From IMG/VR virus record IMGVR_UViG_3300021963_000036: 64,000 bases of DNA; one strand, given 5' to 3'. The notes under the pieces were generated by a model, which had not been told where the DNA came from, did not search any database, and was given only the letters and a program-made list of their open reading frames with translations. How positions within the stretch are numbered: position 1 is the stretch's first letter; every line of letters begins with the position of its first letter. Below, one piece after another: positions 208 through 38,032 of this stretch. The position numbers and the translations under genes are program-made. The stretch is from a virus (taxonomy: Duplodnaviria > Heunggongvirae > Uroviricota > Caudoviricetes).

Positions 208-257
208 AACATTGGAACCAGTGAGGTTCCATTACATAGCAAAAGGAGTTTTTGCAC

Positions 258-1304
258 ATGCGTGACGCATTAGTATTCATCGGTAGGTTCCAACCGTTTC
301 ACAATGGACACAAAGCAGTTATCGAAACTGCGCTCAAGCAAGCAAAAGAAGTTGTGGTCGTAGTCGGCTCATGCTTTGCAGCTCGAAACATTCGAAACCC
401 ATTTACATTTGAAGAACGCAAGGCTATGATTGAAGCCTGCTTTACTGAGCCGCAGCACTTTGCTTATGAAGGTGCTCAAGGCCGAGTAAAGATTCCTCGT
501 GTTAAGGTAGTTCCTGTTTCAGATTACCCATATGACGACAACAAATGGATGAATGCTATCCAGAACGTTGTCGATGAGACTGTTCCTCATGCACAAGATG
601 TTGGCCTAATCGGACACTCGAAAGACAGTACCTCGTACTACTTGGAAATCTTTCCTCGTTGGAAAAACCATGTCGAGGTTGAAGACGTCAGGGGCATCAA
701 CGCGACTGACATTCGGAAGGTATTCTTTGAAACCCCGAATACACCGTTTATGCCGGATATGATGCCTTCTGAGGTTGTTTCTATCCTTGGAGATATTCTT
801 ACAAATAAACCATTTTTTACGCTTCGTACGGAATATGAAATGGTTAAGAAGTACAAGGATGCTTGGAAGTCTGCTCCCTTCCCTCCGACCTTTATGACTG
901 TCGATGCTGTAGTGGTTCAATCTGGCCATCTGCTTCTCGTTAAACGTGGCGACATGCCGGGTAAAGGTCTTTGGGCACTTCCTGGTGGTTTCTTGAACCA
1001 GAACGAAACCATGCTTGACGGTGCAATCCGTGAACTGAAAGAGGAAACCAAGATTAAGGTTCCAGTTCCGGTTCTGAAAGGTTCAGTCAAAGAGTCCAAG
1101 ACGTTTGACGCTCCGAATCGTTCTTCTCGCGGTCGCACTATCACTCAAGCATTCTTCATTGACCTCGGTGTTGGTGAACTGCCGAAAGTGAAAGGCTCTG
1201 ACGACGCTGAAAAGGCGTTTTGGGTTCCCTTCAATAAAGTGAAACAGGAAAAGATGTTCGAAGATCACTTCTTCATCATCGACAACTTCCTTAACATTGG
1301 TTAA
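258..1304 (+). CDS. natV: Bifunctional nicotinamide-mononucleotide adenylyltransferase / Nudix ADP-ribose pyrophosphatase (NadM-Nudix, KVP40 NatV-like)
   Basis: N-terminal GRFQPFHNGH (HxGH nucleotidyltransferase motif); C-terminal Nudix box GGF..x..RELKEETKI; GGAG RBS 9 nt upstream of ATG 258 (the ORF track uses a TTG at 252). Confidence 0.85.
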   Translation: MRDALVFIGRFQPFHNGHKAVIETALKQAKEVVVVVGSCFAARNIRNPFTFEERKAMIEACFTEPQHFAYEGAQGRVKIPRVKVVPVSDYPYDDNKWMNAIQNVVDETVPHAQDVGLIGHSKDSTSYYLEIFPRWKNHVEVEDVRGINATDIRKVFFETPNTPFMPDMMPSEVVSILGDILTNKPFFTLRTEYEMVKKYKDAWKSAPFPPTFMTVDAVVVQSGHLLLVKRGDMPGKGLWALPGGFLNQNETMLDGAIRELKEETKIKVPVPVLKGSVKESKTFDAPNRSSRGRTITQAFFIDLGVGELPKVKGSDDAEKAFWVPFNKVKQEKMFEDHFFIIDNFLNIG

Positions 1305-1953: not shown

Positions 1954-3405
1954 ATGAAAAACGTACTAAACTTAATGACTGCAATCATCCGTACGGATAG
2001 CTATAAGTTCTCGCAGTGGATGCAGTACCCCGCTGATACAGCATACATCAGTTCTTACATCGAATCGCGTGGTGGTGAACCTGAGTCGGTCTTCTTTGGC
2101 CTGCAAGCGTTCATCAAAGAATATATGATGACTCCGATTACGATGAAAGACGTCGATCGCGCTGAGAAGATCGTTCTTGCTCATGGTCTTCCCTTCAACC
2201 GTGAAGGTTGGGAAATCATTGTGAACGACTACAACGGGATGCTTCCTGTCGAGATCGAGGCTGTTCCTGAAGGCACCGTTATGCCTACGCACAACGTTCA
2301 GGTCCAAGTTGTAAACACCGATCCTCGACTGTTCTGGCTGACTTCATACCTTGAGACCGCAATGCTTCGTGGTATCTGGTACCCCTCGACCGTGGCTACC
2401 AAGTCACGTAAGATGAAGAAGATCATTGCGGCCGCTTTGAAGAAAACGTCTGACGTTCCCGTGAACGATCAAATCTTCTTCAAGCTTCACGACTTTGGTG
2501 CACGTGGTGCATCTTCGACCGAAACTGCTATCCTCGGTGGTATGGCTCACCTGATTAACTTCATGGGAACCGACACCTTCGAGGCGATCCCTGCAATCAT
2601 GGAACTTTACAACACCGACGAGGTTGTTGGCTTCTCGATTCCGGCTTCTGAACACTCGACCATCACTTCATGGGGTCGTGAAAACGAGGTCAAAGCTTTC
2701 GAGAACATGATCGACAAGTTTGCCGGTCCTGGTAAGTTGTATGCCTGCGTCTCTGATAGCTTCAACATCTACGAAGCTGCTGGTGACTTGTGGGGCACGA
2801 AGCTGAAGGATAAAATCATTGCGAAAGGCGGCACCTTGGTGGTACGTCCTGACTCTGGTGATCCCGAAACTGTTCCAGTTGAAATCATCGAAATCCTCAT
2901 GGATAAGTTCGGTTTCACTGTGAACTCGAAAGGTTTCAAAGTTCTTCCTCCTTACATTCGTTTGATCCAAGGTGATGGTATCAACGAGAACTCTCTGCCT
3001 AAGATCATCGACAACATGATTGCAAAGGGTTTCTCGATCGACAACATCGCTTTCGGCATGGGTGGTGGGCTTCTGCAAGCTTGGAACCGTGACACTCTCA
3101 AGTACGCAATGAAAGCTTCGGCTCGTTGCGATACGAATGGAGTCTGGCACGACGTGTTCAAAGACCCGATCAGCGATCATGGTAAAGTGTCGAAGAAGGG
3201 TCGTCTTGGCTTGGTTCTTGATGGCGGTATCGGATCGCTTACTCTGCAAACCTTGCCTAAGGATATTGCAGACAAGCGTGGTAACGTACTTCGTAAAGTG
3301 TACCGTAATGGTGAACTTCTGATTGAAGATACGTTTGAACAAATCCGTGAACGTGCAACTTTGAAGGAGAAAGAATATGTCTTCGAAATCGTCGACCGTT
3401 ACTGA
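1954..3405 (+). CDS. nadV: Nicotinamide phosphoribosyltransferase (NAMPT/NadV)
   Basis: 483 aa; N-terminal RTDSYKFSQW..YP motif and overall NAMPT-like length and composition; GAGGAG RBS. Confidence 0.85.
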   Translation: MKNVLNLMTAIIRTDSYKFSQWMQYPADTAYISSYIESRGGEPESVFFGLQAFIKEYMMTPITMKDVDRAEKIVLAHGLPFNREGWEIIVNDYNGMLPVEIEAVPEGTVMPTHNVQVQVVNTDPRLFWLTSYLETAMLRGIWYPSTVATKSRKMKKIIAAALKKTSDVPVNDQIFFKLHDFGARGASSTETAILGGMAHLINFMGTDTFEAIPAIMELYNTDEVVGFSIPASEHSTITSWGRENEVKAFENMIDKFAGPGKLYACVSDSFNIYEAAGDLWGTKLKDKIIAKGGTLVVRPDSGDPETVPVEIIEILMDKFGFTVNSKGFKVLPPYIRLIQGDGINENSLPKIIDNMIAKGFSIDNIAFGMGGGLLQAWNRDTLKYAMKASARCDTNGVWHDVFKDPISDHGKVSKKGRLGLVLDGGIGSLTLQTLPKDIADKRGNVLRKVYRNGELLIEDTFEQIRERATLKEKEYVFEIVDRY

Positions 3406-6524: not shown

Positions 6525-7049
6525 ATGACAGTCCTCGAAAATCTCAAGTCTAGGCACTTCGATATGAATGTGCATACCGTCTGGATTGACGAGGACGAAG
6601 GTGTTGCAACTTATCCTCTGTGGAACCTGACCGGTCAGATGGTTGGCTATCAGCAGTATCGTCCTGCAGCCAATAAGAAGAAAGACAACCATCCTCGCGA
6701 GTCTCGATACTTCTCATGGCGCAAAGACAAAGTCGTCGGCGTTTGGGGTCTCGAGTCTTGGAACTTCTCTAACACTTTGTTTGTAACTGAAGGAACGTTC
6801 GATGCTGCTCGTCTTACTGCTCGTGGTTATTCAGCTGTTGCTACTCTTAGTAATGACGTGGATCCACCTCTCGCGCGATGGCTTTGGACGGTACGACGAA
6901 GTCGCCATGTCGTTGCTGTTTGCGATAACGATAACGCTGGGCGTAAGCTTGCTAAGTGTGGTCATACCTCTCATGTGATGGAAGATGGTAAAGACATGGG
7001 CGAAGCCTCTGATGAATATGTCACTAACTTTTTGAAGGAATACAAATGA
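6525..7049 (+). CDS. stand-alone Toprim-domain protein (DnaG-primase-like catalytic core)
   Basis: LFVTEGTFDAARL ... VAVCDNDNAGRKLA resembles the Toprim E...DxD signature; no zinc-ribbon region. Confidence 0.5.
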   Translation: MTVLENLKSRHFDMNVHTVWIDEDEGVATYPLWNLTGQMVGYQQYRPAANKKKDNHPRESRYFSWRKDKVVGVWGLESWNFSNTLFVTEGTFDAARLTARGYSAVATLSNDVDPPLARWLWTVRRSRHVVAVCDNDNAGRKLAKCGHTSHVMEDGKDMGEASDEYVTNFLKEYK

Positions 7050-8170
7050 AAACTGTACTGACTAGCGAAACTCTCTACAAACTTGACTCGAAGAGTAAGA
7101 CTCGAGTCTGGCATTGTGAAACTGGAACTGATGGAACTCGTTGGGGTCTGCGATCGATTGCTGGCCTTGAAGATGGCAAGAAAGTAACTTCTGAATGGAC
7201 CTTTGTTGAACAGAAGAACATTGGTCGTTCAAACGAAACTTCTCTCGAAGAACAAGCAACGTCTGAGATGGCTTCTGAAGTCCAGAAGAAAAAAGACCGC
7301 GGTTACTTCGCTGACTTGAAGAACATCGACACTTTCGACAAGTTTAAGCCAATGTTGGCTGAAAAGTTTGAAGACGTCACTGTGAACTTCGCTGCGGGTA
7401 ATGTCTATAGCCAACCAAAGTTGGATGGTATTCGTTGTATTGCTCGTGCTGATGGTTTGTGGACTCGATCCGGTAAAGAAATCACTGCAGTGCCTCATAT
7501 TTGGGAAGCGATTCAACCATTCTTTGAAAAGCATCCGAACATGATCCTCGACGGTGAACTATATAACCACGAACTCAAGGACGACTTCAATACTATCACT
7601 TCGATGGTTCGCAAGACAAAGCCGAAGCCTGAAGACTTGGAGAAATCTAAAGAACTCGTGCAGTACCACGTATACGACGTGATCGTCACTGACGAACCTA
7701 ATCTTCTTTTCAGCAAGCGCGAATTGCTTCGCTATGAAGCCTCAGGGAATTACGTTCGAATGGTGCCGACTATGCACGTTCCCACCCGTGCAGGACTCGA
7801 TTCTTTGTATGAAGGTTACCTCGAGCATGGTTATGAAGGGCAAATGGTTCGTATTGACAAGCCATATGAGAACAAGCGTACGAAGAACTTGCTGAAGCGT
7901 AAAGAATTCTTGACTGAAGAATTCGAAGTGATCGAGATGCTCGAAGGTCAAGGTAACTGGCAAGGTTGTGTGAAGCACTTTATTCTTCCTTTGAACGCTG
8001 AGAAGAACTTCCAAGCAGGTGTTCGTGGCGATATGGATACTCTTCGTGAGTTGCTTAAGAACGGGAAAAAGCCTGATTGGGTTACTCTCCGCTACTTCAC
8101 TCCGACTCCTGATGGTGTCCCACGTTTCCCTGTTGTGATCGACTGGGGCTTTGGAAAGCGAGAGGACTGA
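7046..8170 (+). CDS. ATP-dependent DNA ligase
   Basis: Motif I KLDGIRC (KxDGxR) with downstream nucleotidyltransferase motifs; ~370 aa, typical phage ligase size. Confidence 0.85.
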   Translation: MKTVLTSETLYKLDSKSKTRVWHCETGTDGTRWGLRSIAGLEDGKKVTSEWTFVEQKNIGRSNETSLEEQATSEMASEVQKKKDRGYFADLKNIDTFDKFKPMLAEKFEDVTVNFAAGNVYSQPKLDGIRCIARADGLWTRSGKEITAVPHIWEAIQPFFEKHPNMILDGELYNHELKDDFNTITSMVRKTKPKPEDLEKSKELVQYHVYDVIVTDEPNLLFSKRELLRYEASGNYVRMVPTMHVPTRAGLDSLYEGYLEHGYEGQMVRIDKPYENKRTKNLLKRKEFLTEEFEVIEMLEGQGNWQGCVKHFILPLNAEKNFQAGVRGDMDTLRELLKNGKKPDWVTLRYFTPTPDGVPRFPVVIDWGFGKRED

Positions 8171-8237
8171 TCATGGATGGTTTCACACTCTTTTTGATTA
8201 TTTTAACGTTTGGCATCATTTATGTTGGTTTGAAGGG

Positions 8238-8266
8238 TTGACATTTGTGGTTGGATTGCTTATATT
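8238..8266 (+). promoter_or_regulatory. sigma70-type early promoter (TTGACA-17-TATATT) followed by AATAGTAAACA
   Basis: ttgaca at 8238-8243, tatatt at 8261-8266. Confidence 0.5.
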
Positions 8267-8293
8267 CGAATAGTAAACAAAAGGAATCCAACC

Positions 8294-8458
8294 ATGAACC
8301 TCGCTACTCGTAAAATTGCTGAAATGTTGAACATCGACTTGAAAATTGCTCTTGAAGTTCAACACGTTCTCGAGTGCGAATGGTTCGACTTCAGTGAGTG
8401 TTCCAACGCAAGCCTGAAGCGTAATGCAAAACGCGTCTTGAAAGAAATGACCGCGTGA
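8294..8458 (+). CDS. hypothetical small protein (first of three short translationally coupled ORFs, 8294-8736)
   Basis: 54 codons with AAGGAA RBS; next ORFs at 8482-8613 and 8610-8736 (the latter a hydrophobic peptide). Confidence 0.3.
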   Translation: MNLATRKIAEMLNIDLKIALEVQHVLECEWFDFSECSNASLKRNAKRVLKEMTA

Positions 8459-8835
8459 AGCTTTCAGAAGAAATCGCTAACATGACTGCTGTTATGGAAA
8501 CTGACAGCAGTCAACCAACACGACAAGAAGTGTACACGATCTTGCTTCGAGCATTCGTCGAACTTCGTATGTTAGAAAATCGTATCCGTTCCTTAGAAGG
8601 AAAACTCGAATGACTGAACTCATTTTGTATTATGTATTGCCGAATGTCGTGATGTTTGGTGGACTCTATCTTCTCGCAACAGGTATTGAAAACCTGACGT
8701 GGAAGTTCATTCTCTGGTATTGTGACAACTACTGAACTTTACCTGTTGACATCACTCTGCAACAATTACCGAAGTCAACAAGAATGAATTTCATGTTTCT
8801 GACTTCTCTCATCTTCGTAAAGTCTGAGGTATATC

Positions 8836-9960
8836 ATGCACTACAAGTTTCCTGAAATTCGCACGATCTATGATGTGTTGCTTGCGATCGAAGGTCGCCC
8901 AGAGTTCATCGTTGCCGAGCGCGACTTTGGCAAAGTGATCAACTACATGGTCTCGATGCCAGACACTTTCAAGATGGAAGGTCCTGACGACGTGATGGGT
9001 GCTATTCGTCGTGAGTGTCGAGGCTTGATCTTCGACGATGAAGGCAACATCATGTCTCGCCCGTATCACAAGTTCTTCAACGTGAACGAGAAAGAAGAGA
9101 CTCAGTCGCATCTTCTCGACTTGACTCGTGCTCACTCTGTGATGGATAAGTTGGATGGTTCTATGATCCGTCCGATCTGGATGCATGACACGGTTCGTCT
9201 TGCTACGAAGATGGGTGTGACTGACATTGCGATCGAAGCTGAGAAGCTGCTGGATTATGATCAGTGGACGTGGCTTGAAGATATGATGGTCGACAGTCTG
9301 ACTCCGATCTTCGAATACGTTGCTCCGACGAACAAGATCGTTGTTGAGTATGCTGAAGAAAAGCTAATCTTGACCGGTGTTCGCGAAAACGTTAGCGGTG
9401 AATATCGTAGCTTGCGCCAGTGGAATGCACCGTTTGAAATCGTTCGCACTGACTCGAATGTTCATGACTTCGATGCTTATCTTACTTTCAAGCGCGGTGA
9501 AACGAACCGTGAAGGTGACATCATCCGCTTTGCTGATGGACATATGATCAAGATCAAGAACGACTGGTACGTGCAAATCCACAAGACCAAGGACGTCGTT
9601 CGTGTTGATCGCAACATCGTTGAACTCGTACTAAACGAGACGATCGACGATACTCGCGCCGTACTTGATCCTTCGGACTTGGTTCGAGTCGATGAAGTCG
9701 AAGCTAACTTTTGGAAAGCTTTCGAGAATGTTGTTGGTCGATTGGAAGGGCTGGAACTCTTGGCTCGCACTATCTACGGTGCCGACAAGAAACGTATCGC
9801 TTTGGAAATGGCTCCGAACTTGATTAACAAACAGGATGCCGGTTTCATGTTCAAACTGATCGACGGTCATGACGTTCGTGAACTGTTGCTGACCCATTGT
9901 AAGAAGAACATCGGTTCGACTCCGAAGTATGATGAACTGATGGAATGGATGAAAGCATGA
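8836..9960 (+). CDS. rnlA: RNA ligase 1 (T4 Rnl1/gp63-like)
   Basis: HKFFNVNE (T4 Rnl1 has EKFFNLNE) and motif I MDKLDGSM; length matches T4 Rnl1. Confidence 0.8.
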   Translation: MHYKFPEIRTIYDVLLAIEGRPEFIVAERDFGKVINYMVSMPDTFKMEGPDDVMGAIRRECRGLIFDDEGNIMSRPYHKFFNVNEKEETQSHLLDLTRAHSVMDKLDGSMIRPIWMHDTVRLATKMGVTDIAIEAEKLLDYDQWTWLEDMMVDSLTPIFEYVAPTNKIVVEYAEEKLILTGVRENVSGEYRSLRQWNAPFEIVRTDSNVHDFDAYLTFKRGETNREGDIIRFADGHMIKIKNDWYVQIHKTKDVVRVDRNIVELVLNETIDDTRAVLDPSDLVRVDEVEANFWKAFENVVGRLEGLELLARTIYGADKKRIALEMAPNLINKQDAGFMFKLIDGHDVRELLLTHCKKNIGSTPKYDELMEWMKA

Positions 9961-10280
9961 CATCGGAAACTGAACTAAACTACTACGAAGAGCTTTGCAG
10001 ACTTAAGGTCCAATACAAAGCTCTTCGTGAAGAATACTTCTTGGTGTCAGCTTCTTCGCGCTTTCATGACATTGAAGAAGGAGACTTTTGTCCGGAGTGC
10101 AATGGTTCTGGCTACAAGTTGTATGGTTCTACCGCAACTTGGAGAGGTGGCATCGGCGGACAAGCTATGACTACTTCAGTATGTGATAAATGTTGGGGTT
10201 CTGGCTCTAAGTCGGCTCCTTGGCCATCATGGAGAGAATACGAAGCTCTAAAAGAAAGGTTGACAAATGACTCCGTTTAG
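9957..10280 (+). CDS. zinc-ribbon protein
   Basis: CPECNGSGYK ... CDKCWGSGSK paired CxxC motifs. Confidence 0.45.
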   Translation: MTSETELNYYEELCRLKVQYKALREEYFLVSASSRFHDIEEGDFCPECNGSGYKLYGSTATWRGGIGGQAMTTSVCDKCWGSGSKSAPWPSWREYEALKERLTNDSV

Positions 10281-10461
10281 AGTAGATTTTGATCAAGTAA
10301 ATTACATGAAATTTCGTCCAGGAACCAAACTTGTGCTTGGACCAGAAATTGCTATAGTGATGGCTTCGTGCAATAAAATTCCGCGCGTGTTCAAGCCTAT
10401 TGTTGATTTGTCAAAAATGATGCATCACCCTGAAGTCGAAGCACTTCTGTTTGGAGTATGA
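10267..10461 (+). CDS. hypothetical protein
   Basis: 64-aa ORF overlapping the upstream stop. Confidence 0.3.
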   Translation: MTPFRVDFDQVNYMKFRPGTKLVLGPEIAIVMASCNKIPRVFKPIVDLSKMMHHPEVEALLFGV

Positions 10462-10723
10462 CATGAAAGTACGTGAAGCGTTTCCCGGATTTACTACGCT
10501 GTTCAAGCACTGCCGTCCAGCCGCTGGTGATGCGGTTGTATATGAAGTCGATGCTGGAGCACCAGCCGATCCAAACCTTGTTATGAAAGCATCTTGCTTT
10601 GATGATGAGAAACCCGTTGGTGAAACGTTCGAGTTCATTATCTCTAAGGAATGGGTTCTTGAAAACATTGTAAGTATCCTAGCTGCGTACGAACCAGTTG
10701 ACAATGTAGCAAGTTCGGTATAA
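10451..10723 (+). CDS. hypothetical protein
   Basis: 90-aa ORF. Confidence 0.35.
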   Translation: MEYDMKVREAFPGFTTLFKHCRPAAGDAVVYEVDAGAPADPNLVMKASCFDDEKPVGETFEFIISKEWVLENIVSILAAYEPVDNVASSV

Positions 10724-10748
10724 TATCCGATTGAAATAGGAGATAAGA

Positions 10749-11870
10749 ATGTTCGAACGTAAACTAGCGTCTATTCGGCGCATCGCTGACATCCAACCGA
10801 TCGAAGGCGCTGATCAAATTGTAGTCGCCACCATCGATGGCTGGAAAGTTGTTGTTAAAAAAGATGAGTTTCGAGTTGGTGATCTTGCAGCATATCTTGA
10901 GATCGACTCGTGGGTTCCTCATGAACTCGCCCCATTCCTCTCGAAAGGTCAAGATCCTCGCGAATACAACGGTGTGAAAGGTGAACGCCTGCGCACTATC
11001 AAACTTCGCGGACAGGTTAGTCAAGGGCTGCTGCTTCCACTTCGGCCAGTGTTTGCAGAGTGGACTGATGAGAATTTTCAAAAGAATATTCTTGAAGATG
11101 AGGAACGTGTCGGCGACGATCTTACTGAAGCACTTGGCATCCAGAAATGGGAAGCTGTGCTGCCTGCACAACTTCAAGGTCAGGCCAAAGGCACGTTCCC
11201 AACGTCACTGATTCCAAAGACTGATCAAGAGCGTATTCAAAACTGCTTTGGTGAAATCCAAAAGCGGGCAAAGCGGTTCGCTACTGAGAAGGTCTGGAAT
11301 GCTGAGACTCAGACTCTGGAAGAGCATCCAGTTGTTGTTCCTACTGACTTCAAAGAACAGACCTACGAAGTCACCATGAAACTGGATGGTTCGAGTTGTA
11401 CTATCTTCCGCTGGGAAGACGAACTTCGTGTTTGCAGTCGGAACCTTGAGCTCAAGATCAACGATGAAAACAAAGACAACACCTTCGTTGCCATGGCTCT
11501 CAAGATCGGCGACCGTGTTCCTAATGGGTTTGCTTTTCAAGGTGAAGTGATGGGACCTGGCATTCAGGCCAACCGTGAAGGATTTATTGAACATAAGTTC
11601 TTCGTGTTTGATGTGTTCCTCATTAAAGAACATAAGTATGCCGGTCCAGCCTACCGGCGAGCGTTTTGCCAAGAATACGGATTCGAACACGTTCCAGTTC
11701 TTGAGCATAATCTCAAGGCACCCGTGAGCGTCGCAGAAGGTCTTGCTATGGCAGAAGGTCCGAGCATCAACCACAAGATCCGTGAAGGTCTTGTTTGGAA
11801 GTGCAACGAAGACCCGAGCTTCAGCTTCAAGACGATCAGCAATCAGTTCCTGCTGAAAGGTGGGGACTGA
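10749..11870 (+). CDS. second ATP-dependent RNA ligase, Rnl5/DraRnl-like, with an N-terminal OB/tRNA-binding-like domain
   Basis: Motif I MKLDGSSCTIF at residue ~211; the N-terminal 100 aa (IRRIADIQPIEGADQIVVATIDGWKVVVKKDEFRVGDLAAY) follows the Trbp111/CsaA OB-fold pattern. Confidence 0.55.
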   Translation: MFERKLASIRRIADIQPIEGADQIVVATIDGWKVVVKKDEFRVGDLAAYLEIDSWVPHELAPFLSKGQDPREYNGVKGERLRTIKLRGQVSQGLLLPLRPVFAEWTDENFQKNILEDEERVGDDLTEALGIQKWEAVLPAQLQGQAKGTFPTSLIPKTDQERIQNCFGEIQKRAKRFATEKVWNAETQTLEEHPVVVPTDFKEQTYEVTMKLDGSSCTIFRWEDELRVCSRNLELKINDENKDNTFVAMALKIGDRVPNGFAFQGEVMGPGIQANREGFIEHKFFVFDVFLIKEHKYAGPAYRRAFCQEYGFEHVPVLEHNLKAPVSVAEGLAMAEGPSINHKIREGLVWKCNEDPSFSFKTISNQFLLKGGD

Positions 11871-12175
11871 TGTGTAACTGCAAAGGATGGGACGTTGCGT
11901 TCTTCCAAGATGATGAGATCACGGTAGTACAGCACTTTTGTCGAGTGTATGGAGACTGTGGTCACGTCGATAACACCCTTGAAGAGGCTGCAGATCAAGT
12001 CGCCTCTGAATACGACAAGAACTATGATTGGTACTGTGATGCGAGAAATCGTGACATAGTAGAAGTCACAGACGAGAAACTCGATTGGTTGCTTGCTCAA
12101 GCGAAGTCTTGGAAAGATCGTACACATACGAGCTATTTGTACTACGCAATTGGCGAAAATATTGGCCTTTTGTGA
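11870..12175 (+). CDS. hypothetical Cys-rich protein
   Basis: ATG overlaps the upstream stop (TGATG); MCNCKGWD... frame. Confidence 0.35.
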   Translation: MCNCKGWDVAFFQDDEITVVQHFCRVYGDCGHVDNTLEEAADQVASEYDKNYDWYCDARNRDIVEVTDEKLDWLLAQAKSWKDRTHTSYLYYAIGENIGLL

Positions 12176-12237
12176 AAAAGGCTATTTACATCCTTTGTGA
12201 ATAGGGTTATACTATATTCATAGCCAAGGAGATAAAC

Positions 12238-12771
12238 ATGACTGTCAATGCTTCCGATCGTAACGGCCTCGAGCTTACCCCCGCTGCAGACACCTTGAAC
12301 GCCTACCGCTTGACTGCGGTAAACACCAAGACCAAGAAGTTCACAGCTTACGCAGCCGGTACTCGTAAATCGAACCAAGAGTTCAATATGTTCACGATCG
12401 GCTTATATGACGATCCTCGCGACGCTGCTTATGTTGCTCAAGAGTTCGAAAAGAAAGTCAGCAAATCTCAAGTTCGTGAGATGGTTACCGACAGTACTTT
12501 CGCTGAGTTTGCTAAAGACTTCCGGTCGAACATCGAAATCCCTGAGTGGGTCTACCCTGCTGAAGGTATGACGATCGACGAGATGCTGAACACCACCTAC
12601 AAACGCAACTATGTTCTCGATGCCCGTGAAGCTCTGGTTGAAGCGATCAACGTCTTCAAAAAGCCGGTTCCTTCTCTGAAAGATGCTGCAGCGATGATCA
12701 AGAAAGTTGAAGCTGCGGTGAAAGAAGGTATGACCCTCCGTGCAGCTGCGGCGAAAGTGATCGGCGCCTAA
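12238..12771 (+). CDS. hypothetical protein
   Basis: 177-aa ORF with AAGGAG RBS after a TTTACA-17-TATACT promoter (12185-12213). Confidence 0.45.
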   Translation: MTVNASDRNGLELTPAADTLNAYRLTAVNTKTKKFTAYAAGTRKSNQEFNMFTIGLYDDPRDAAYVAQEFEKKVSKSQVREMVTDSTFAEFAKDFRSNIEIPEWVYPAEGMTIDEMLNTTYKRNYVLDAREALVEAINVFKKPVPSLKDAAAMIKKVEAAVKEGMTLRAAAAKVIGA

Positions 12772-12808
12772 GCAAAACATAAATAGTAAGCAATATCATG
12801 GAGGAACC

Positions 12809-13567
12809 ATGCGCTTACTATTCATTCTTGCCCTCATCCCAACGTTTGCTTATGCAAATCCAATAGACGACAAATGCCCAGAGCACACCGCTCTGGGTGC
12901 TCCTATATCTAAGCTAGTTGAAGATACACAGTATGTATGTCATACCAACTATGCAATTCACTATCGCTTTGATACTAAGACTGCTGAATACGTAGTCGAG
13001 CATCTAGACGATGCTGACATCAATGGTCCAGCAAAGCGAAAAGACGACTTCAGACCAGACGATCAAATTCCAGCTGAGCATTCAGCAACGCTTGAAGATT
13101 ACTCTGGCGAACCATACGATCGTGGGCATCTAGTCCCAGGCGCAGACAATAAAGCAGATCAAGAGATCATGAGTGAAAGCTTCTTTCTTTCAAACATGGT
13201 TCCTCAAGTGCCAAACAACAACCGCGGTATCTGGAGAATGCTTGAGCTCAAAGTACGTAACTGGGCTCTTGAAAAGAGAGACCTCTATGTGGTCTCTGGT
13301 ACGATCTATGAAGAAGGATACAAGACCATCGGTGATGGTAAAGTTGGTGTCCCTACGTACCTCTGGAAGGTTGTGTATGATAAGACTACCAACACAACCG
13401 TGGCATACCTCATGCCGAACGCTGAGCTTCCAGTGAATGATCTACCAAAGTACGTAACCACAGTAGACCAAGTTGAAGAACTTACTGGTCTGAATATCTT
13501 CCCACAGCTTGAAGAATCTGCAGAAGGCGTTGCAAATCCTGAAGTATGGACCAACATTTCTGATTGA
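12809..13567 (+). CDS. secreted DNA/RNA non-specific endonuclease (Serratia NucA family)
   Basis: N-terminal signal peptide MRLLFILALIPTFAYA; active-site DRGHLVP and Mg-site FFLSNMVPQ motifs. Confidence 0.8.
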   Translation: MRLLFILALIPTFAYANPIDDKCPEHTALGAPISKLVEDTQYVCHTNYAIHYRFDTKTAEYVVEHLDDADINGPAKRKDDFRPDDQIPAEHSATLEDYSGEPYDRGHLVPGADNKADQEIMSESFFLSNMVPQVPNNNRGIWRMLELKVRNWALEKRDLYVVSGTIYEEGYKTIGDGKVGVPTYLWKVVYDKTTNTTVAYLMPNAELPVNDLPKYVTTVDQVEELTGLNIFPQLEESAEGVANPEVWTNISD

Positions 13568-13616
13568 CATTTTTCCTTCTGTGGTGTAGAGTTGAACCAT
13601 AGAAGGAGATTACACA

Positions 13617-14072
13617 ATGAAAAAAGGCGAACTCCTGAGCAAGATGCTCCATATCGCTACTAATGCCCACCACGGCCAGTTTGATCGTGGTGGCAATCCC
13701 TACATCCTGCATCCGATCAAAGTGATGCACTACATCAAATCCGAAGACGAAGAGCTGCAGTGTATCGCACTTGGCCATGACGTAATCGAAGATACAGATG
13801 TGACCTTCCTCGATCTTGTCGATGCTGGAATGACCACTCGAGTTATTGAGGGTATCCGAGCTCTGACAAAGATGCCGGGGCAAACCTACGATGAATACAA
13901 AGAAGGCGTCTTCAAGAATGTTGATGCCATGAAAGTCAAGTTGGCGGATCTTCGCCATAATACAGACGTGCGCCGGCTGAAAGGTGTCTCTGAAAAAGAC
14001 ATCGCCCGCATGGAAAAGTACCATCGTTTCTACCTTGAAATCAACTTCCGCTTGAAGGAACTCGAAAAATGA
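13617..14072 (+). CDS. HD-domain (p)ppGpp hydrolase (small alarmone hydrolase, Mesh1/SpoT-like)
   Basis: HGQFDRGGNPYILHP ... LGHDVIEDT motifs; 151 aa. Confidence 0.75.
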   Translation: MKKGELLSKMLHIATNAHHGQFDRGGNPYILHPIKVMHYIKSEDEELQCIALGHDVIEDTDVTFLDLVDAGMTTRVIEGIRALTKMPGQTYDEYKEGVFKNVDAMKVKLADLRHNTDVRRLKGVSEKDIARMEKYHRFYLEINFRLKELEK

Positions 14073-14485
14073 AACCGTTTAAGATCAACCGTAGCTCTTG
14101 GCACTACAAACTGAACCAGCACTTCTTTAACATGGAAGGAAGTAGCGAATATTGGATGCAACGGGACTGGGAACCGAAGCACAACACCTTCTGTTCATAT
14201 TGGCGCGCAACGATGTTTCGCTTCATTTTTGCGTCTGCACTCATGGCCTTTTTTGGTACGCTTTTCACTGCTCTTGGAGTAGCAACTTATCAAGACCCGT
14301 TTGCGGCACTCATCACGTTCCTTTCGATCGCCACTGTTTTTGGTTCGGTTATCGGTTCTTTCGCGATCTTTCAATACTTCAAAAATCGTAGCGAAAAGAA
14401 CAGCAATGAACCTAAGTCGCTGTTCGTTCAGAAATACCGTGCATACAAATCGAAAGTATGCCCAATGGTGGAATTCGAAAAATGA
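14069..14485 (+). CDS. membrane protein
   Basis: two or three predicted TM helices (FIFASALMAFFGTLFTALGV..., ALITFLSIATVFGSVIGSFAIF). Confidence 0.45.
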   Translation: MKPFKINRSSWHYKLNQHFFNMEGSSEYWMQRDWEPKHNTFCSYWRATMFRFIFASALMAFFGTLFTALGVATYQDPFAALITFLSIATVFGSVIGSFAIFQYFKNRSEKNSNEPKSLFVQKYRAYKSKVCPMVEFEK

Positions 14486-15126
14486 AAACTCGTCTGATCG
14501 GAGACATTCACGGTGAATGGGAACTCTATCATCAAACCGCAACTGATGCGATCAATTCCGGATGCGAACGCACGATCCAAGTTGGTGACTTCGGTGTTGG
14601 ATTCTCTGGTCCATATTGGCACGACCGCGCTGACGAATTTCACTGGGACCGAACGCATCGCTTCATCCGTGGCAATCATGATGATCCATCACGTTGCAAG
14701 AAAATGTCTGGCTGGATTCAAGATGGCCTTATCGAAAATGACGTGATGTTCATCGGTGGTGCATGGTCAATCGACCATATGCTACGCACTGAAGGAACTT
14801 CTTGGTGGGCTGATGAAGAACTATCGATGGAAGAACTCTATCGCATGATCGAGATCTATGAGCAGGTCAAGCCTCGAGTTATGATCACTCATGACTGTCC
14901 GCAAGAAGTAAGCACAGCGATGTTCATTCAAACCGGTCTTGCTTTGTTCAAAGGGAATGCTAAGACTATTCCTACTCGAACTGCAATGGCATTCAGCACG
15001 ATGCTTGATATTCACCAGCCCGATGAGTGGTATTTCGGACATTGGCATAACACAATGCAATACAAACATGGGCGTACGATGTTCCAGTGTCTTGGTATTC
15101 ATGATTATGTGGACGTAGAACTATGA
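14482..15126 (+). CDS. Ser/Thr-phosphatase-like metallophosphoesterase (lambda-PPase fold)
   Basis: GDIHGEW, VGDFG and RGNHDD motifs; start taken at MKTRLIGDIHG. Confidence 0.7.
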   Translation: MKTRLIGDIHGEWELYHQTATDAINSGCERTIQVGDFGVGFSGPYWHDRADEFHWDRTHRFIRGNHDDPSRCKKMSGWIQDGLIENDVMFIGGAWSIDHMLRTEGTSWWADEELSMEELYRMIEIYEQVKPRVMITHDCPQEVSTAMFIQTGLALFKGNAKTIPTRTAMAFSTMLDIHQPDEWYFGHWHNTMQYKHGRTMFQCLGIHDYVDVEL

Positions 15127-15332
15127 CCGAATATAATCCATTCACTGAGTGTGAAGCAATGAGTTCTGAACATGGTACCGGATGGTCGGTTGTTTCAAAA
15201 TATTGGAGCATCCCATGCGCAAATGAAGGTACAGCCAAACGTATTGCCGAGATTATTAAATTTGCTTATCACCGCGGTGTATCTGATAATCAAAACATGA
15301 TAAAAAAGGTAATGGGAATTCCGTATGAATGA
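15123..15332 (+). CDS. hypothetical protein
   Basis: 69-aa ORF coupled to its neighbours. Confidence 0.35.
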   Translation: MTEYNPFTECEAMSSEHGTGWSVVSKYWSIPCANEGTAKRIAEIIKFAYHRGVSDNQNMIKKVMGIPYE

Positions 15333-15651
15333 ATATAGACCAGATAATTGGGTAGTGATCAAAATCAAAGGCGATGACCCTCACTACAAAGTTCTTGCTG
15401 GCTGGTCTGGTGGATATACTACAGGTGATTCGTGGCGTATGAACAGCGGCATCACTATGGTTGACGAGATCGAGAATGCGTTTATGTTCAAGGGGTCTAC
15501 TGGTTCAGTGTACACATGTCGTAAGGAAAGTTATTGCTTGCGCATGAACAATGCACACGTCTGGGCTCGGCTTCAAGAGCTTCATGGTGACAAAGTCGAA
15601 CTCATGCCAGAAGATACCGACTGGATGAACATTGATTGGATCATTAAATGA
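15325..15651 (+). CDS. hypothetical protein
   Basis: 108-aa ORF. Confidence 0.4.
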   Translation: MNEYRPDNWVVIKIKGDDPHYKVLAGWSGGYTTGDSWRMNSGITMVDEIENAFMFKGSTGSVYTCRKESYCLRMNNAHVWARLQELHGDKVELMPEDTDWMNIDWIIK

Positions 15652-16121
15652 TTGACCTGTCCACTTTTGATAAAGGTGGCTTTGGAAAAGTCGACCACTC
15701 TCTTGTGAATAACTGGACTTGGGATTCACTTGGCGAGATGGTTAAACATATCGCACAAAACGATATCCGCCGATACTCCCCACTTGGAGACGGCGGATTC
15801 GCTTGTTGGGGTTGTGAACCTTGGTTCAAAGAGGTGTTGGACTTTCTTCAGCCTCTTAAGCCGGAGTACCAACCTCGTGCCGCAGCATATTGTAGCACAA
15901 GCGATACTTCTAAGTCCTTTGATCTTCATCGTGATCATGAGCAGTATATCTGGGTTTGGCAAATCATTGGGTCGACTCCTTGGCAGGTAGAGGATACTGA
16001 GTTTGTACTCGAAACAAATGAGTTGCTCTATGTTAGTCCTAACATGCTACACTGCGCCAAACCAAACTCACCGCGTGCAAGCATCACATTTTCTCTCGAA
16101 AAAGAGCATTTTTATGGTTGA
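15648..16121 (+). CDS. hypothetical protein (possible cupin-like fold)
   Basis: 157-aa ORF; His-rich LHRDHEQYIWVW segment. Confidence 0.35.
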   Translation: MIDLSTFDKGGFGKVDHSLVNNWTWDSLGEMVKHIAQNDIRRYSPLGDGGFACWGCEPWFKEVLDFLQPLKPEYQPRAAAYCSTSDTSKSFDLHRDHEQYIWVWQIIGSTPWQVEDTEFVLETNELLYVSPNMLHCAKPNSPRASITFSLEKEHFYG

Positions 16122-16146
16122 CATTACTTTCGTGATGTAATAGTAT
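16118..16146 (+). promoter_or_regulatory. sigma70-type promoter (TTGACA-17-TAGTAT)
   Basis: ttgaca at 16118-16123, tagtat at 16141-16146. Confidence 0.45.
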
Positions 16147-16189
16147 GTACACATAGGCAATAGGAATCATAACGGTCAAGGAGGACCAT

Positions 16190-16417
16190 ATGAATAATGT
16201 GCCGGTGAGCCAAGTTGAAAGTTGGCTCGGTAAACGCCGAATGGCTAAGGTCGGAAAGATCTGGTCTGAAGGCAATGGTGTCATGGTTATCCTGAAAGAA
16301 GGATTAACGAATGACAAATGGGATACCAACGGTATCTTCATATCACACGAGGAGACGATCTCCGACCAAAAGGCGGAACTCCTCCAGTTCTTCGAAGATA
16401 TTGTAGAGGATACATAA
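16190..16417 (+). CDS. hypothetical protein
   Basis: 75-aa ORF with AAGGAGG RBS. Confidence 0.35.
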   Translation: MNNVPVSQVESWLGKRRMAKVGKIWSEGNGVMVILKEGLTNDKWDTNGIFISHEETISDQKAELLQFFEDIVEDT

Positions 16418-16818
16418 TGACTCCAACTCTCTATTGCCTCATGCGTGAGGATCTACAAGACCTGAATCCAGGCAAAGGCATGGCTCAAGCCATGCATGCT
16501 CAAGCTGACTTCGATGAATGGGTCACGAAGAACAAAAACAGCGGACATATTCCATTCATCAAAGAATGGAAAGAAGATCGATCATTTGGTCGAACTCTTG
16601 TTCTTGAAGCTTCGTTTGATCAGATTAGCAATATCATAGCGATTGCGATGTGCACTGCAGAACCTGCAGATGTAACGGTCGACCCAACTTATCCTTGGCG
16701 AAACTATTACGGCAAGTTGTTTGTGACGTCAGAAGTCACCTGCGCATGGGTATTCGCCTGCGACATCACCCCGCAAAACGTTCTCGATGAACTACGTAAA
16801 CTCTCTCTTCATAAGTAA
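16418..16818 (+). CDS. putative peptidyl-tRNA hydrolase, PTH2-like
   Basis: NPGKGMAQAMHAQ resembles the PTH2 GKG..AQ..HA core; assignment is tentative. Confidence 0.35.
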
Positions 16819-16828
16819 GGAATATACA

Positions 16829-17137
16829 ATGAAAACTGTTCTACTTGGCACTGCAGCAATCGTCGGTCTCGGTCTATTGACTTGGGGCGGAATTTACGTG
16901 AATGGCTTCTTTGATGCAGCGCGTGAAGCACAGCGCACGAAAGTGTTTCAAGAATCGCAAGCGCATACCGATGGTATGAAACTGCAACTGAACAATCTCT
17001 ACATGGAATATCAGAAAGCAGACACCGCTGGTAAGATTGGCATTGCGAATGCTACTCGTGACATCTTCGCATCGGTTGACACCACTGATTACCCGAAGCA
17101 CCTTCAGAATTTTCTCATGGAAGTACAGGCTCGATAA
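16829..17137 (+). CDS. membrane-anchored protein
   Basis: N-terminal TM helix MKTVLLGTAAIVGLGLLTWGGIY; AAGGA RBS. Confidence 0.4.
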   Translation: MKTVLLGTAAIVGLGLLTWGGIYVNGFFDAAREAQRTKVFQESQAHTDGMKLQLNNLYMEYQKADTAGKIGIANATRDIFASVDTTDYPKHLQNFLMEVQAR

Positions 17138-17668
17138 ATGAAAAAGATCCTTCTCGCAACTACTCTTGCACTGATGACTGCAACCACTGCAAATGCTGGT
17201 TGGTTCGATGAACCGGCTCCGTCCAGTGATGAAGCTGTGTCCGATCAAATGGAAAAACTCCTGAAAGAAGGTGAGCGCCAAACTGGTCTGCCGGCTATCA
17301 CCAACTTCACTGAAAAGCGCATGGTCAAATGGTTGTACGAACTTCGTGATCAACCCAATTATCGTACTTACACTTACATCACCACCATGAACGGTGCGCT
17401 GGTCAAGATCTGTGATAGTGTTGGTTATGGTATCAGCGCTTCGATTCAGTACAGCAATCCTGATAAAGTCGTCGACTACGAAGATTACCTAGGCACTGGT
17501 TATGTTGACGCGAACCTTGGTACTCTGCCTCAAGCAGAACCGAATGGTCTGTTTATGCCTGAAGGTCTCGCGGCAACTTACGTGATGTGCGTGGTTCCTG
17601 GGAAAGACGAAGTTCAAGCAGTTTATATTGAACCTGAAATCATTGTTTCGCCATTTCCCTTGAATTAA
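17138..17668 (+). CDS. secreted protein
   Basis: Signal peptide MKKILLATTLALMTATTANA. Confidence 0.45.
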   Translation: MKKILLATTLALMTATTANAGWFDEPAPSSDEAVSDQMEKLLKEGERQTGLPAITNFTEKRMVKWLYELRDQPNYRTYTYITTMNGALVKICDSVGYGISASIQYSNPDKVVDYEDYLGTGYVDANLGTLPQAEPNGLFMPEGLAATYVMCVVPGKDEVQAVYIEPEIIVSPFPLN

Positions 17669-17672
17669 GTGG

Positions 17673-17701
17673 TTGACACTTAGAAAGAATGATGATATTC
17701 T
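17673..17701 (+). promoter_or_regulatory. sigma70-type promoter (TTGACA-17-TATTCT)
   Basis: ttgaca at 17673-17678. Confidence 0.4.
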
Positions 17702-17725
17702 ATTCATGTAAGCAAGGAGCTACTC

Positions 17726-17926
17726 ATGAAAAAGATCGTCATTCTCTCTGTTCTTCTTCTTTCTGCTTGTGCTAGTGCTGGCATTCCGATCGAACAAGAT
17801 CGTGAAATGCAGTTGCAGTACATGCAAGATGTTTCTGAGCGTAAAGTGTTTCGACCTGAAGTGTATGCTGAACCAGAGTTCGAAGCAGACTGTGAAGAAT
17901 ATCAAATGGAAGAATGCTTCAATTAA
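17726..17926 (+). CDS. small lipoprotein
   Basis: MKKIVILSVLLLSAC lipobox-type signal peptide. Confidence 0.45.
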   Translation: MKKIVILSVLLLSACASAGIPIEQDREMQLQYMQDVSERKVFRPEVYAEPEFEADCEEYQMEECFN

Positions 17927-17937
17927 GGAATAAAAAT

Positions 17938-19182
17938 ATGCGAATGTTTCTGGTCGGTGGCTTTGTCCGCGACCACCAAATGGGTATGATGCCACAAGAC
18001 CGCGACTATGTCGTTACTGGCACAACTGAAGAAGAATTCCTGAAAGCTTCACCCTTTGGGCATACGTTCTCAAAGGTTGGTGCAGCATTTCCAGTTTACA
18101 TCGATGATACCGGCAATGAGTGGGCTCTGGCTCGTCGCGAAAAGAAAGTCGGTAAAGGTTATCATGGCTTCGAATCAACCTCTGGTCCTGAAGTGACGAT
18201 CGAAGAAGATCTGTCTCGTCGTGATCTGACCGTGAATGCTATGGCTATCGAGATCTTCGAAGATATGAAGACTCGCATCGTCAACACCATCGATCCTTTC
18301 AACGGTCAAGAAGATCTGAAGAACAAAGTTCTGCGACACACCTCTGATGCTTTTGCTGAAGATCCTGTTCGTGTTCTGCGACTGGCTCGATTCCGTGCAC
18401 GCTTTGGCCCTGAATGGACAGTTGCTCCAGAGACTGTTGCTCTGGTTTCTTCGATGGCGAAGAAGGGTGTTCTGAATGAGCTGACGGCTGAACGTGTTTG
18501 GAAAGAACTGAGTCGAGCTCTGATGGAAGATCATGCACGGCTGTTCTTCGATACTCTGCTGGAATGTGATGCGCTGCATGTTCTGTTTCCAGAAGTCTAC
18601 AAACTGAAGACTGCTCTGGAAGCGCGGCGTTGGCACCCAGAAGGTGATGCTTACGAGCACACTATGCTGGTTCTGACTCAAGCTGTCGAGAGCAACTTCG
18701 ATCTGGAGACACGACTGGCTTGTCTGGTTCACGACTTCGGCAAGGGTCTGACTCCTCGTGATCAACTGCCCAAGCACTACGGGCACGAGGTTTCGGGTGT
18801 TAAGGTTGCTAAGGACTTCTGTGATCGTCTGACTGTTCCGTCGAAGATGCGGGATCGAGTGATGAAGACCACTCGTTTCCATATGCATATGCATAAGCTG
18901 GATACCCTGAACCCAAAGACTTGGGTAAAGATGTTCATGGAAATGGATGCGTTTCGTGATCCGGAAGTCGTCCTGCTGCTGTGGGCTGTTGGTGTCTGCG
19001 ATGAAAACGGTCGACTGGGTTCTGAGGACTCCGATACTTCTCACCTGATGAAGGTTCGACAAGTCTTCGATCGTGTTCGTATGGTAAAGTTTGCCGATGT
19101 CTTTCCGAATGGTGAAAAGAACCCTATGAAGATCAAGGACGGTATCTTCAAAGCGCGTGTTCAGGCGGTTAAGTCTGCCTGA
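17938..19182 (+). CDS. cca: tRNA nucleotidyltransferase (CCA-adding enzyme) with C-terminal HD domain
   Basis: GGFVRD and RRDLTVNAMA polymerase-beta-type head motifs; VHDFGKG HD motif; start at MRMFLVGG with AAGGAA RBS. Confidence 0.8.
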   Translation: MRMFLVGGFVRDHQMGMMPQDRDYVVTGTTEEEFLKASPFGHTFSKVGAAFPVYIDDTGNEWALARREKKVGKGYHGFESTSGPEVTIEEDLSRRDLTVNAMAIEIFEDMKTRIVNTIDPFNGQEDLKNKVLRHTSDAFAEDPVRVLRLARFRARFGPEWTVAPETVALVSSMAKKGVLNELTAERVWKELSRALMEDHARLFFDTLLECDALHVLFPEVYKLKTALEARRWHPEGDAYEHTMLVLTQAVESNFDLETRLACLVHDFGKGLTPRDQLPKHYGHEVSGVKVAKDFCDRLTVPSKMRDRVMKTTRFHMHMHKLDTLNPKTWVKMFMEMDAFRDPEVVLLLWAVGVCDENGRLGSEDSDTSHLMKVRQVFDRVRMVKFADVFPNGEKNPMKIKDGIFKARVQAVKSA

Positions 19183-25353: not shown

Positions 25354-25365
25354 TTGGAGACAAAT

Positions 25366-25600
25366 GATGCCAACTTATACATTCAGAAACGAATCAACCG
25401 AAGAGGAAGTAACGCACTTCATGACTTGGGCTGAACGTGAAGAATTTGTTAAACAAAACCCCGACTTCAAACAGATTCTCACTGCACCAGCTATTGCTGA
25501 TTCAGTGCGTCTAGGTGTGCGAAAAATTGATAGAGGCTTTAACGACGTCCTTCAGAAAGCCAAAAGCGCGCATCTACATTCAACTATCGAGACACTCTAA
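25366..25600 (+). CDS. hypothetical protein
   Basis: 78-aa ORF beginning MMPTYTFRNE. Confidence 0.4.
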
Positions 25601-35946: not shown

Positions 35947-36111
35947 GTAGAACATGAGTGAAGTCAAAACAGAAGAAGAAAAAGACGAGGGCTACACTCA
36001 GCGTGAATGGGATCGTACCGTAGGTATCGGAAAGGTTCCAGAAGAATATGCTAAACGCATCAAAACATATGAAGAAAAACAACGTAGGTATGATCGAGGC
36101 TAAACTTTTTG

Positions 36112-36141
36112 TTGACATTAACGAGTAAGTAGTGTATAAAT
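36112..36141 (+). promoter_or_regulatory. sigma70-type promoter (TTGACA-17-TATAAAT, also matching T4-late TATAAATA) driving the ORF-free ssrA-like region
   Basis: ttgaca at 36112-36117, tataaat at 36135-36141. Confidence 0.5.
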
Positions 36142-36159
36142 AGACTTGTAGTGATGATA

Positions 36160-38000: not shown

Positions 38001-38032
38001 TTCGGCATGGGGTGGTTACCTAATAAACCCGC

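Follow-up and report, generated by a model that had tools for sequence, protein, structure and literature searches.

In bacteriophage T4, the genes e (lysozyme), soc, 49, and I-TevI have their Shine-Dalgarno (SD) sequence and AUG sequestered in long early transcripts; the late promoter lies in the DNA for the 5′ strand of the inhibitory structure, and the late mRNAs lack this strand (PMC3014915). The extracellular nuclease of Serratia marcescens (PDB 1g8t/1smn) and Anabaena NucA (1zm8/2o3b) are disulfide-containing enzymes exported with an N-terminal Sec signal, and prophages of Streptococcus pyogenes encode the exported beta-beta-alpha-metal nucleases Spd1 and Sda1 (PMC3258162). Here we examined a stretch of 64,000 nucleotides (nt) from a virus of the Caudoviricetes (IMG/VR record IMGVR_UViG_3300021963_000036), referred to below as the window, in which an open reading frame (ORF) at 12809..13567 on the + strand encodes a nuclease of the same family with a predicted export signal. 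The gene is preceded by a motif resembling a T4-type late promoter and by a predicted leader hairpin over its ribosome-binding site. On balance, if only just, we consider it probable that the product is a late-gated nuclease that is stored in the periplasm and released at lysis. The enzyme family, export by a signal peptide, and the T4 promoter-in-hairpin arrangement are each already textbook knowledge. What appears to be new is their combination in a virulent-type phage and how large the exported phage clade is; this clade has no close cultured member and appears to be uncharacterized. Our literature search for a functional study of an exported nuclease in a lytic phage found none, returning only prophage DNases and general reviews.

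Nuclease family, active site, and predicted export

A preliminary description of this locus, made from the sequence without database searches, had given a gene of 252 amino acids (aa) at 12768-13567. The length and the end at 13567 stand; the start is instead at 12809, and position 12768 belongs to the end of the preceding gene. An SD sequence, GGAGG, lies at 12800-12804 with the ATG five bases on, and the opposite-strand ORFs over 12809..13567 are shadows of the nuclease frame. The proposal that the product is a Serratia-type nuclease carrying the NucA motifs DRGH and SNMVPQ was borne out: the two motifs were found at residues 104 to 107 and 128 to 133, and a hidden Markov model search matched Pfam Endonuclease_NS (PF01223) above the family threshold (E = 3.4e-50; 171.2 bits versus a cut-off of 23), spanning residues 38 to 235 and profile positions 14 to 221 of 223. 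The product also matched PHROG 14168, annotated "nuclease" (E = 5e-56). Sequence matches in the PDB comprised EXOG, Anabaena NucA, EndoG, and Serratia nuclease, with E values from 5e-32 to 2e-12. An AlphaFold (AF2) model built from 65 homologues had a mean predicted local distance difference test score (pLDDT) of 90.3. With this model, Foldseek returned a probability of 1.00 and template modeling (TM) scores of 0.75 to 0.78 to EXOG (5t3v), NucA (1zm8), and Serratia nuclease (1qae); the model also superposes on EndoG.

To locate the catalytic residues, we aligned a Serratia nuclease reference sequence identical to PDB 1g8t with the phage-clade profile (hhalign). D104-R105-G106-H107 aligns to Serratia D86-R87-G88-H89, and the DRGH motif is present in 176/176 homologues. 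In the comparison with EXOG, H107 matches H140, which is Ala in the inactive-mutant PDB chains. Residues D104 to H107, together with N138 and E146, are invariant across the 65 aligned homologues, while the counterpart of Serratia R57 is ambiguous, with an invariant R77 two columns off. The gene is under strong purifying selection (dN/dS, the ratio of nonsynonymous to synonymous substitution rates, = 0.04 to 0.08), with synonymous sites near saturation relative to relatives (proportion of synonymous differences, pS, ~0.7). The ORF thus encodes a member of the Serratia/NucA/EndoG group (His-Me finger group 5) with an intact active site, as all sequence and structure comparisons agree, and Mg2+-dependent, sugar-nonspecific cleavage of DNA and RNA is its predicted activity.

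The preliminary description had also called for a cleavable signal peptide and an exported enzyme rather than a cytoplasmic one resembling T4 EndoII/IV, and both predictions gained support from the relatives. Signal peptides were called heuristically from n-, h-, and c-region design (positive n-region, h-region of 7 to 15 residues, small residues at −3/−1). The N-terminus, MRLLFILALIPTFAYA|NPIDD, has the n-region M-R, the hydrophobic core LLFILALIPTF, and Ala at both −3 and −1; inspection of the 252-aa sequence revealed neither a lipobox Cys nor a twin-arginine motif at the N-terminus. We pooled 176 distinct homologous sequences from a protein search and from viral, genomic, and metagenomic loci. 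In 172 of these, a presequence of 16 to 30 aa stands directly before a near-invariant NPI(D/N)D; the residue at −1 is Ala in 168 and that at −3 is Ala or Val in 157 of the 172. A net positive charge in the first eight residues was found in 167 homologues, and the hydrophobic core is kept throughout (median 9-aa Kyte-Doolittle score, 2.8) while its sequence is free to drift. Motif variation or truncated gene calls account for the four homologues outside this design. The presequence is also the sole low-confidence part of the AlphaFold model (pLDDT, 55 to 67).

Two cysteines of the mature protein, C23 and C44, are invariant in both of our alignments (A1 and A2) and form a probable disulfide pair. 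Among 173 mature sequences, 168 have exactly two cysteines, five have none, and none has a single one. According to a passage of PMC5714182 that cites Ball et al. (1992), the activity of Serratia nuclease depends on its disulfides. Because the presequence design is kept and the Cys pair co-varies, an exported enzyme fits these data better than a cytoplasmic enzyme of the T4 EndoII/IV type. We predict that the nuclease is made as an exported precursor with a cleavable Sec presequence, cut between residues 16 and 17.

Several features set the phage enzyme apart from its described relatives. It shares with Serratia nuclease and NucA the Pfam family, the fold, the His of DRGH, the Mg-ligand Asn, and the Glu, but identity in structure-based alignments is only ~24 to 32%, and the Cys pair C23/C44 differs in position from the C9-C13 and C201-C243 pairs of the Serratia enzyme. 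In contrast to NucA, the gene belongs to a lytic T4-like phage and has no linked NuiA-type inhibitor: when ORFs within 4 kb were clustered over 59 dereplicated loci, a comparison of adjacency only, neither that pairing nor any other linked inhibitor or immunity gene was detected, and the most frequent neighbor family occurred at no more than 11/59 loci. The mitochondrial enzymes EXOG and EndoG are the best matches by both sequence and structure (E = 5e-32; TM score, 0.75 to 0.77; ~31% identity), but they are eukaryotic and organellar and carry a mitochondrial presequence rather than a Sec signal; EXOG has in addition a C-terminal wing domain that is missing in the phage enzyme. S. pyogenes Spd1 and Sda1 and the nucA/dns genes of Campylobacter CJIE prophages, which are weak homologues (26%), are phage-borne, as is the window nuclease, and exported, as the latter is predicted to be. 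These are lysogenic-conversion factors serving the bacterium in immune evasion or as a block to transformation, whereas the window nuclease lies in a virulent-type T4-like genome and follows a late-type promoter motif. Among cultured phages, the best homologue is ORF241 of Ralstonia phage RP13 (40%), which has the same layout of signal peptide, A|NPIDDSCP, Cys pair, and DRGH. Klebsiella phages K64-1 and RaK2 and Yersinia phages YerA41 and GN1, all large cultured phages, carry uncharacterized annotated nucleases of at most 40% identity, and the K64-1 and RaK2 genes are annotated "periplasmic DNA/RNA non-specific endonuclease."

Late-promoter-like motif and predicted leader hairpin

The preliminary description had remarked that the nuclease gene, unlike most early genes of the window, has no upstream TTGACA box and is preceded instead by a late-type ATAAATA, and closer analysis agrees on both counts. 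We detected no match to TTGACA or TTGACA-17-TAnnnT within 120 nt upstream of the gene, whereas many genes of the first 35 kb have TTGACA-17-TAnnnT ~50 to 68 nt upstream. In its place stands CATAAATAGTAAGCA (12778-12792), with 23 nt between its ATAAATA core and the ATG. The initial T of the late motif (position −13) is poorly conserved among T4-like phages (NATAAATA), and the late motif of Aeh1 is CTAAATA (PMC1524935, PMC2984593); for this reason CATAAATA qualifies as a late motif. Across all 16 distinct upstream sequences from a sub-clade of 79 to 100% aa identity, NATAAATA followed by GTARGC is invariant and occupies the same position. In these same 16 relatives, the base preceding ATAAATA and all sequence further upstream vary, and the upstream gene is replaced in some. 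Throughout the phage clade, [A/C/T]TAAATA occurs within 60 nt upstream in 20/39 independent upstream types, compared with 44/370 for the remaining ORFs at those loci (Fisher p = 3e-8). Within the window, TATAAATA was observed 10 times versus 2.0 expected; it lies 38 to 62 nt before the baseplate genes at 46707 and 53459, including a divergent pair at 46668/46690. Given this enrichment and the placement ahead of baseplate genes, T4-type late promoters are plausibly in use in this phage.

Directly after the motif begins a leader hairpin (12786-12818) that had not been noted before. An outer stem pairs GUAAGC, the 5′ arm, with GCUUAC in codons 2 to 4; it encloses an inner hairpin whose loop and flank contain the SD sequence GGAGG (12800-12804) and whose 3′ strand contains the AUG (12809-12811). 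The predicted free energy of the leader is −10.7 kcal/mol (z = −2.9), and leader z-scores overall ranged from −2.3 to −3.2. We scored the structure on 12 distinct sequences, with slid 3′ partners as the control. Pairing was retained in 97.7% of cells, compared with 23 to 39% for slid partners, and reached 100% in the outer stem. The pair 12789/12815 is A-U in eight of these sequences and G-C in four, a compensatory change (n = 12). The change in the coding arm is synonymous (Leu codon 3, UUA to CUA) and always matched to the 5′ arm, and one further sequence has a G-C to G-U change. In a neighbor-joining tree of the coding sequences, the G-C variants fall in at least two separate lineages. As a single base pair open to mutation, 12789/12815 makes a compact case in which to test translational gating in phages other than the T-evens.

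The predicted stability depends on the 5′ arm, without which it drops to −4.5 kcal/mol. In most relatives the arm-dependent difference in free energy (ddG) is −5 to −8.6 kcal/mol, in two only −1.9 to −4.1 kcal/mol, and only 1% of random hexamers put in place of the arm perform as well. Relatives retain an SD-occluding inner stem in shifted registers. According to the T4 spacing rule, the late motif lies at −13..−6 (PMC1524935). Applied here, with the start site assumed from T4, this rule puts the late start at ~12791, the last base of the 5′ arm. The nuclease leader would thus have the same layout as those of T4 e, soc, 49, and I-TevI, with a TATAAATA-type promoter, a ddG of about −6 kcal/mol, and a predicted start. 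It differs from the T4 gates in gene and sequence and in the position of its 3′ arm, which is part of the coding region.

Ahead of the upstream ORF, a consensus scan gave a sigma70-like promoter at 12185, and no terminator-like site was found on the + strand between this promoter and 12809. The 12185 promoter is the presumed source of early transcripts reading through into the nuclease gene, and the leader hairpin seems designed against such read-through.

When we looked for the same gate at the other late-motif genes of the window, only the ORF at 39147-39788 (phrog_3577, function unknown), which follows the pstS-like gene, had an analogue, and a weaker one. In this leader (39114-39175, + strand), AATAAATA stands directly before UCUGAAA, which pairs with codons 4 to 6 and encloses the ribosome-binding site; its ddG is −2.7 kcal/mol, no better than random arms.

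Proposed mechanism and competing explanations

We propose the following course of events. Early in infection, read-through transcripts from upstream sigma70-type promoters would include the whole leader; GUAAGC would pair with codons 2 to 4 and the inner stem would shut the SD sequence and AUG, so that the message would be poorly translated. Late in infection, T4-type transcription would begin ~6 nt past CATAAATA, at ~12791, and the resulting mRNA, being without the 5′ arm, would have an open ribosome-binding site. The precursor would be exported via Sec and cut after A-Y-A, and the mature enzyme would fold in the periplasm with a C23-C44 disulfide, away from replicating phage DNA. Lysis would free the nuclease together with the virions, and the enzyme could then digest unprotected DNA and RNA around the burst, whether of the host, from unpackaged phage genomes, or extracellular. 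The danger to the phage's own DNA would be countered twice, by delay of translation to the late period and by periplasmic storage until lysis. Lack of a linked inhibitor would be expected if compartmentation is the safeguard, and a late, periplasm-stored, lysis-released enzyme would explain how a nonspecific nuclease is carried safely without one. Such an enzyme would also be a candidate for an accessory role in lysis or dispersal and would point to viruses as a source of extracellular nuclease activity. Export, cleavage, disulfide formation, the transcription start, and early repression are steps that we infer, as, above all, is the biological role.

Several observations count against this proposal. 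The double change in the outer stem is limited to one base pair, and the 16 sequences are close relatives (79 to 100% aa identity). When the outer stem was sought in distant nuclease clades with (A/C)TAAATA, none was found (ddG ~0). In other distant homologues (loci L145, L148, L155, and L149-L156), sigma70-like promoters (TTGACAAA...TATATT) replace the late-type motif. We saw no gp55 in the window, and for a gp33-like ORF (25364-25600) the annotations in cultured phages are only "hypothetical" or "transcriptional regulator." The role after lysis is favored through the logic of timing and compartment only. Because distant homologues have no outer stem and some have sigma70-like promoters, the proposed late gating, as judged by these comparisons, is a trait of the sub-clade and not of the whole nuclease family, and the timing of nuclease expression probably differs between phage lineages.

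A nuclease in the periplasm could also act before lysis. It could destroy the DNA of a secondary phage or other foreign DNA in the periplasm of the infected cell, replacing the role of host endonuclease I in T4 superinfection breakdown. Such exclusion agrees with the predicted location, with the presence of Campylobacter prophage nucleases among the homologues, and with the finding that periplasmic nucleases degrade incoming DNA and lower transformation (PMC5714182). We nonetheless rate it as unlikely, since exclusion functions are usually early, whereas the nuclease has a late-type promoter motif and a leader that seems to block early translation, and since the neighbors include no conserved membrane-protein partner of the Imm or Sp kind. 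Less probable again is an auxiliary metabolic role, in which extracellular nucleic acid would be digested and the products would feed phage DNA synthesis via PstS and host transporters. The preliminary description had pointed to a phosphate theme, and the window indeed contains phoH and a pstS-like gene whose product likewise has a signal peptide (MKFLSISLLALTAAFPAFA|RD). The region upstream of the latter (38032-38137) has a hairpin resembling a terminator and, at 38068-38100, three Pho-box-like TGTnAnA direct repeats spaced 11 bp apart, and the gene is possibly under host PhoB control. By inspection, no such repeats are present in 12772-12808 ahead of the nuclease, which has the late-type motif instead. 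As pstS is 25 kb away and its Pho-box-like repeats are missing at the nuclease, the tie of the nuclease to phosphate is weak. Further against scavenging, no exported phosphatase or 5′-nucleotidase is encoded nearby (the Metallophos protein encoded at 14458 lacks a signal peptide), and until lysis an enzyme in a Gram-negative periplasm could reach little of the polymeric DNA outside the cell. Both the superinfection-breakdown and the scavenging roles are less likely than a post-lysis function.

Other alternatives concern the hairpin and the N-terminus themselves. The hairpin could be a translational-coupling device opened by ribosomes of the upstream ORF, or a 5′ stabilizer or RNase-processing element, an explanation that we regard as improbable to about the same degree as exclusion. 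Two relatives (loci L004 and L086) have an upstream stop codon that overlaps the motif only 3 nt before the 5′ arm, where a terminating ribosome could melt the arm. The window itself, however, has 14 nt between the upstream stop and the arm, and relatives do not share the same upstream genes. The spacing from motif to arm is always 0 nt, whereas the distance to the upstream stop varies, and this constancy suggests that selection acts on the promoter-arm relation. Very improbable, in our estimate, is an N-terminus that is not a cleaved signal, which would make the protein either a cytoplasmic enzyme that degrades host DNA in the manner of T4 EndoII/IV or a nuclease anchored in the membrane by its uncut N-terminus. 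Ala at −1 in 168/172 presequences followed by the near-invariant NPIDD, the short, variable, and poorly modeled presequence (16 to 30 aa), and the co-varying Cys pair all speak against both forms; moreover, a free nonspecific nuclease in the cytoplasm would cut phage DNA too, and no inhibitor gene is linked.

A broader form of the late-gated, lysis-released reading is that a large clade of Sec-exported NucA-like nucleases, specific to phages, regularly serves uncultured T4-like phages late in infection, the enzyme being kept in the periplasm until lysis frees it, with a gate of the gene e type in this sub-clade. More than 1,500 protein clusters and at least 331 IMG/VR contigs belong to this clade, in which cultured members reach 40% identity at most. 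We put this generalization forward tentatively and consider it doubtful, if less so than the alternatives above. If it were true, these enzymes would join endolysin, holin, and spanin as a lysis-associated class, and through them viruses would contribute directly to the turnover that dissolved DNA and RNA undergo in natural waters.

The phage, its relatives, and neighboring genes

The window comes from a T4-like myovirus without a close cultured relative. A megablast search of 12000-14500 against 50,697 GenBank phage records returned no match, and the baseplate wedge protein shares 42% identity with its counterparts in Sinorhizobium phages phiM12 and phiN3. The window encodes gp32, a helicase loader, RNase H, two RNA ligases, DNA ligase, a CCA-adding enzyme, nicotinamide adenine dinucleotide (NAD) salvage genes, phoH, and the pstS-like gene. 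It also carries a two-piece (permuted) transfer-messenger RNA (tmRNA) at 36108-36479 on the + strand (Rfam alpha_tmRNA, 102.7 bits; tmRNA_permuted, 94 bits), for which ARAGORN gave the tag peptide ANENSAPVAYALAA; one TATAAATA motif (36135-42) lies inside this tmRNA. Because the tmRNA is of the alphaproteobacterial type, it suggests a Gram-negative alphaproteobacterium as host.

Homologues of the nuclease number 1,515 at E ≤ 1e-10. Those of at least 55% identity are all on viral or metagenome contigs, with 331 stretches confirmed in IMG/VR, and contigs bearing an 82%-identical nuclease reach 195 to 271 kb and are syntenic with the window. Among 185,579 species-representative cellular genomes, the best match (60%) was on a single 20-kb contig of a metagenome-assembled genome, which is probably viral; the others, at ≤45%, were in Luteolibacter, Geobacter/Geomonas, and Bacteroidota. 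From the cellular homologues in these genomes, no donor or host could be named.

The co-directional 177-aa ORF upstream of the nuclease had no match in Pfam, PHROG, NCBIfam, or PADLOC. We considered it as a conserved partner of the nuclease and rejected it, as unrelated genes replace it in relatives such as that at locus L004. A known defense or anti-defense component was likewise rejected, NCBIfam and PADLOC returning nothing for the nuclease or its neighbors. The coordinates of all features are collected in Table 1.

Table 1. Features of the nuclease locus and of other genes in the window
Feature	Coordinates	Strand	Remarks
NMN (nicotinamide mononucleotide) adenylyltransferase-NUDIX fusion	252-1304	+	NAD salvage; TATAAATA 56 nt upstream
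Nicotinamide phosphoribosyltransferase	1954-3405	+	NAD salvage
ATP-dependent DNA ligase	7046-8170	+	
Rnl1-type RNA ligase	8836-9960	+	
PHA02142/Rnl-type ligase	10749-11870	+	
Sigma70-like promoter TTTACA-17-TATACT	12185..12213	+	10/12 consensus matches; precedes upstream ORF
Upstream co-directional ORF, 177 aa	12238..12771	+	Function unknown
T4-type late-promoter-like motif CATAAATA (NATAAATA form)	12778..12785	+	ATAAATA invariant among relatives
Outer stem, 5′ arm GUAAGC	12786..12791	+	RNA fold; −5..+1 of predicted late promoter
Inner hairpin CAUGG-AGGAA-CCAUG	12797..12811	+	Stem CAUGG/CCAUG, 12797-801/12807-11; 95% of cells paired
Nuclease ORF	12809..13567	+	ATG start, 252 aa; only clear gene of region
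Predicted Sec-type signal peptide, residues 1-16 (MRLLFILALIPTFAYA)	12809..12856	+	Predicted signal-peptidase-I cut after A-Y-A
Outer stem, 3′ arm GCUUAC	12813..12818	+	Within codons 2-4; pairs with GUAAGC at 12786-91
Mature nuclease, residues 17-252 plus stop codon	12857..13567	+	Beta-beta-alpha-metal (His-Me finger) DNA/RNA nonspecific endonuclease fold
Cys23 (12875-77) and Cys44 (12938-40)	12875..12940	+	Probable disulfide pair of exported protein
DRGH motif (D104 R105 G106 H107)	13118..13129	+	H107, general base
SNMVPQ, residues 128-133	13190-13207	+	Conserved SN..PQ block of family; not itself metal ligand
N138	13220-22	+	Mg-ligand Asn; aligns to Serratia N119
E146	13244-46	+	Glu of magnesium-water cluster; aligns to Serratia E127
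Sigma70-like promoter TTGACA-17-TAGAGT	13564..13592	+	Overlaps nuclease stop codon; starts early-type unit with SpoT-like HD hydrolase gene at 13617
CCA-adding enzyme with HD domain	17914-19182	+	
phoH	25615-26367		Present in window
pstS-like gene	38138-39118	+	PBP_like_2, E = 2.5e-47

Directly after the nuclease lies a stand-alone SpoT/RelA-type HD gene (13617-14072, + strand, 151 aa) with its own TTGACA-17-TAGAGT promoter. Its product matched phrog_990 and, below the cut-off, TIGR00691 (E = 5e-14), and is possibly a (p)ppGpp hydrolase. End-repair enzymes flank the nuclease on both sides (7046-19182, + strand), and their order is kept on a 271-kb relative contig. The guanine-plus-cytosine content of the window is 45 to 48% in the early/metabolic half (1-34000) and 37 to 41% in the baseplate/structural half (44000-64000).

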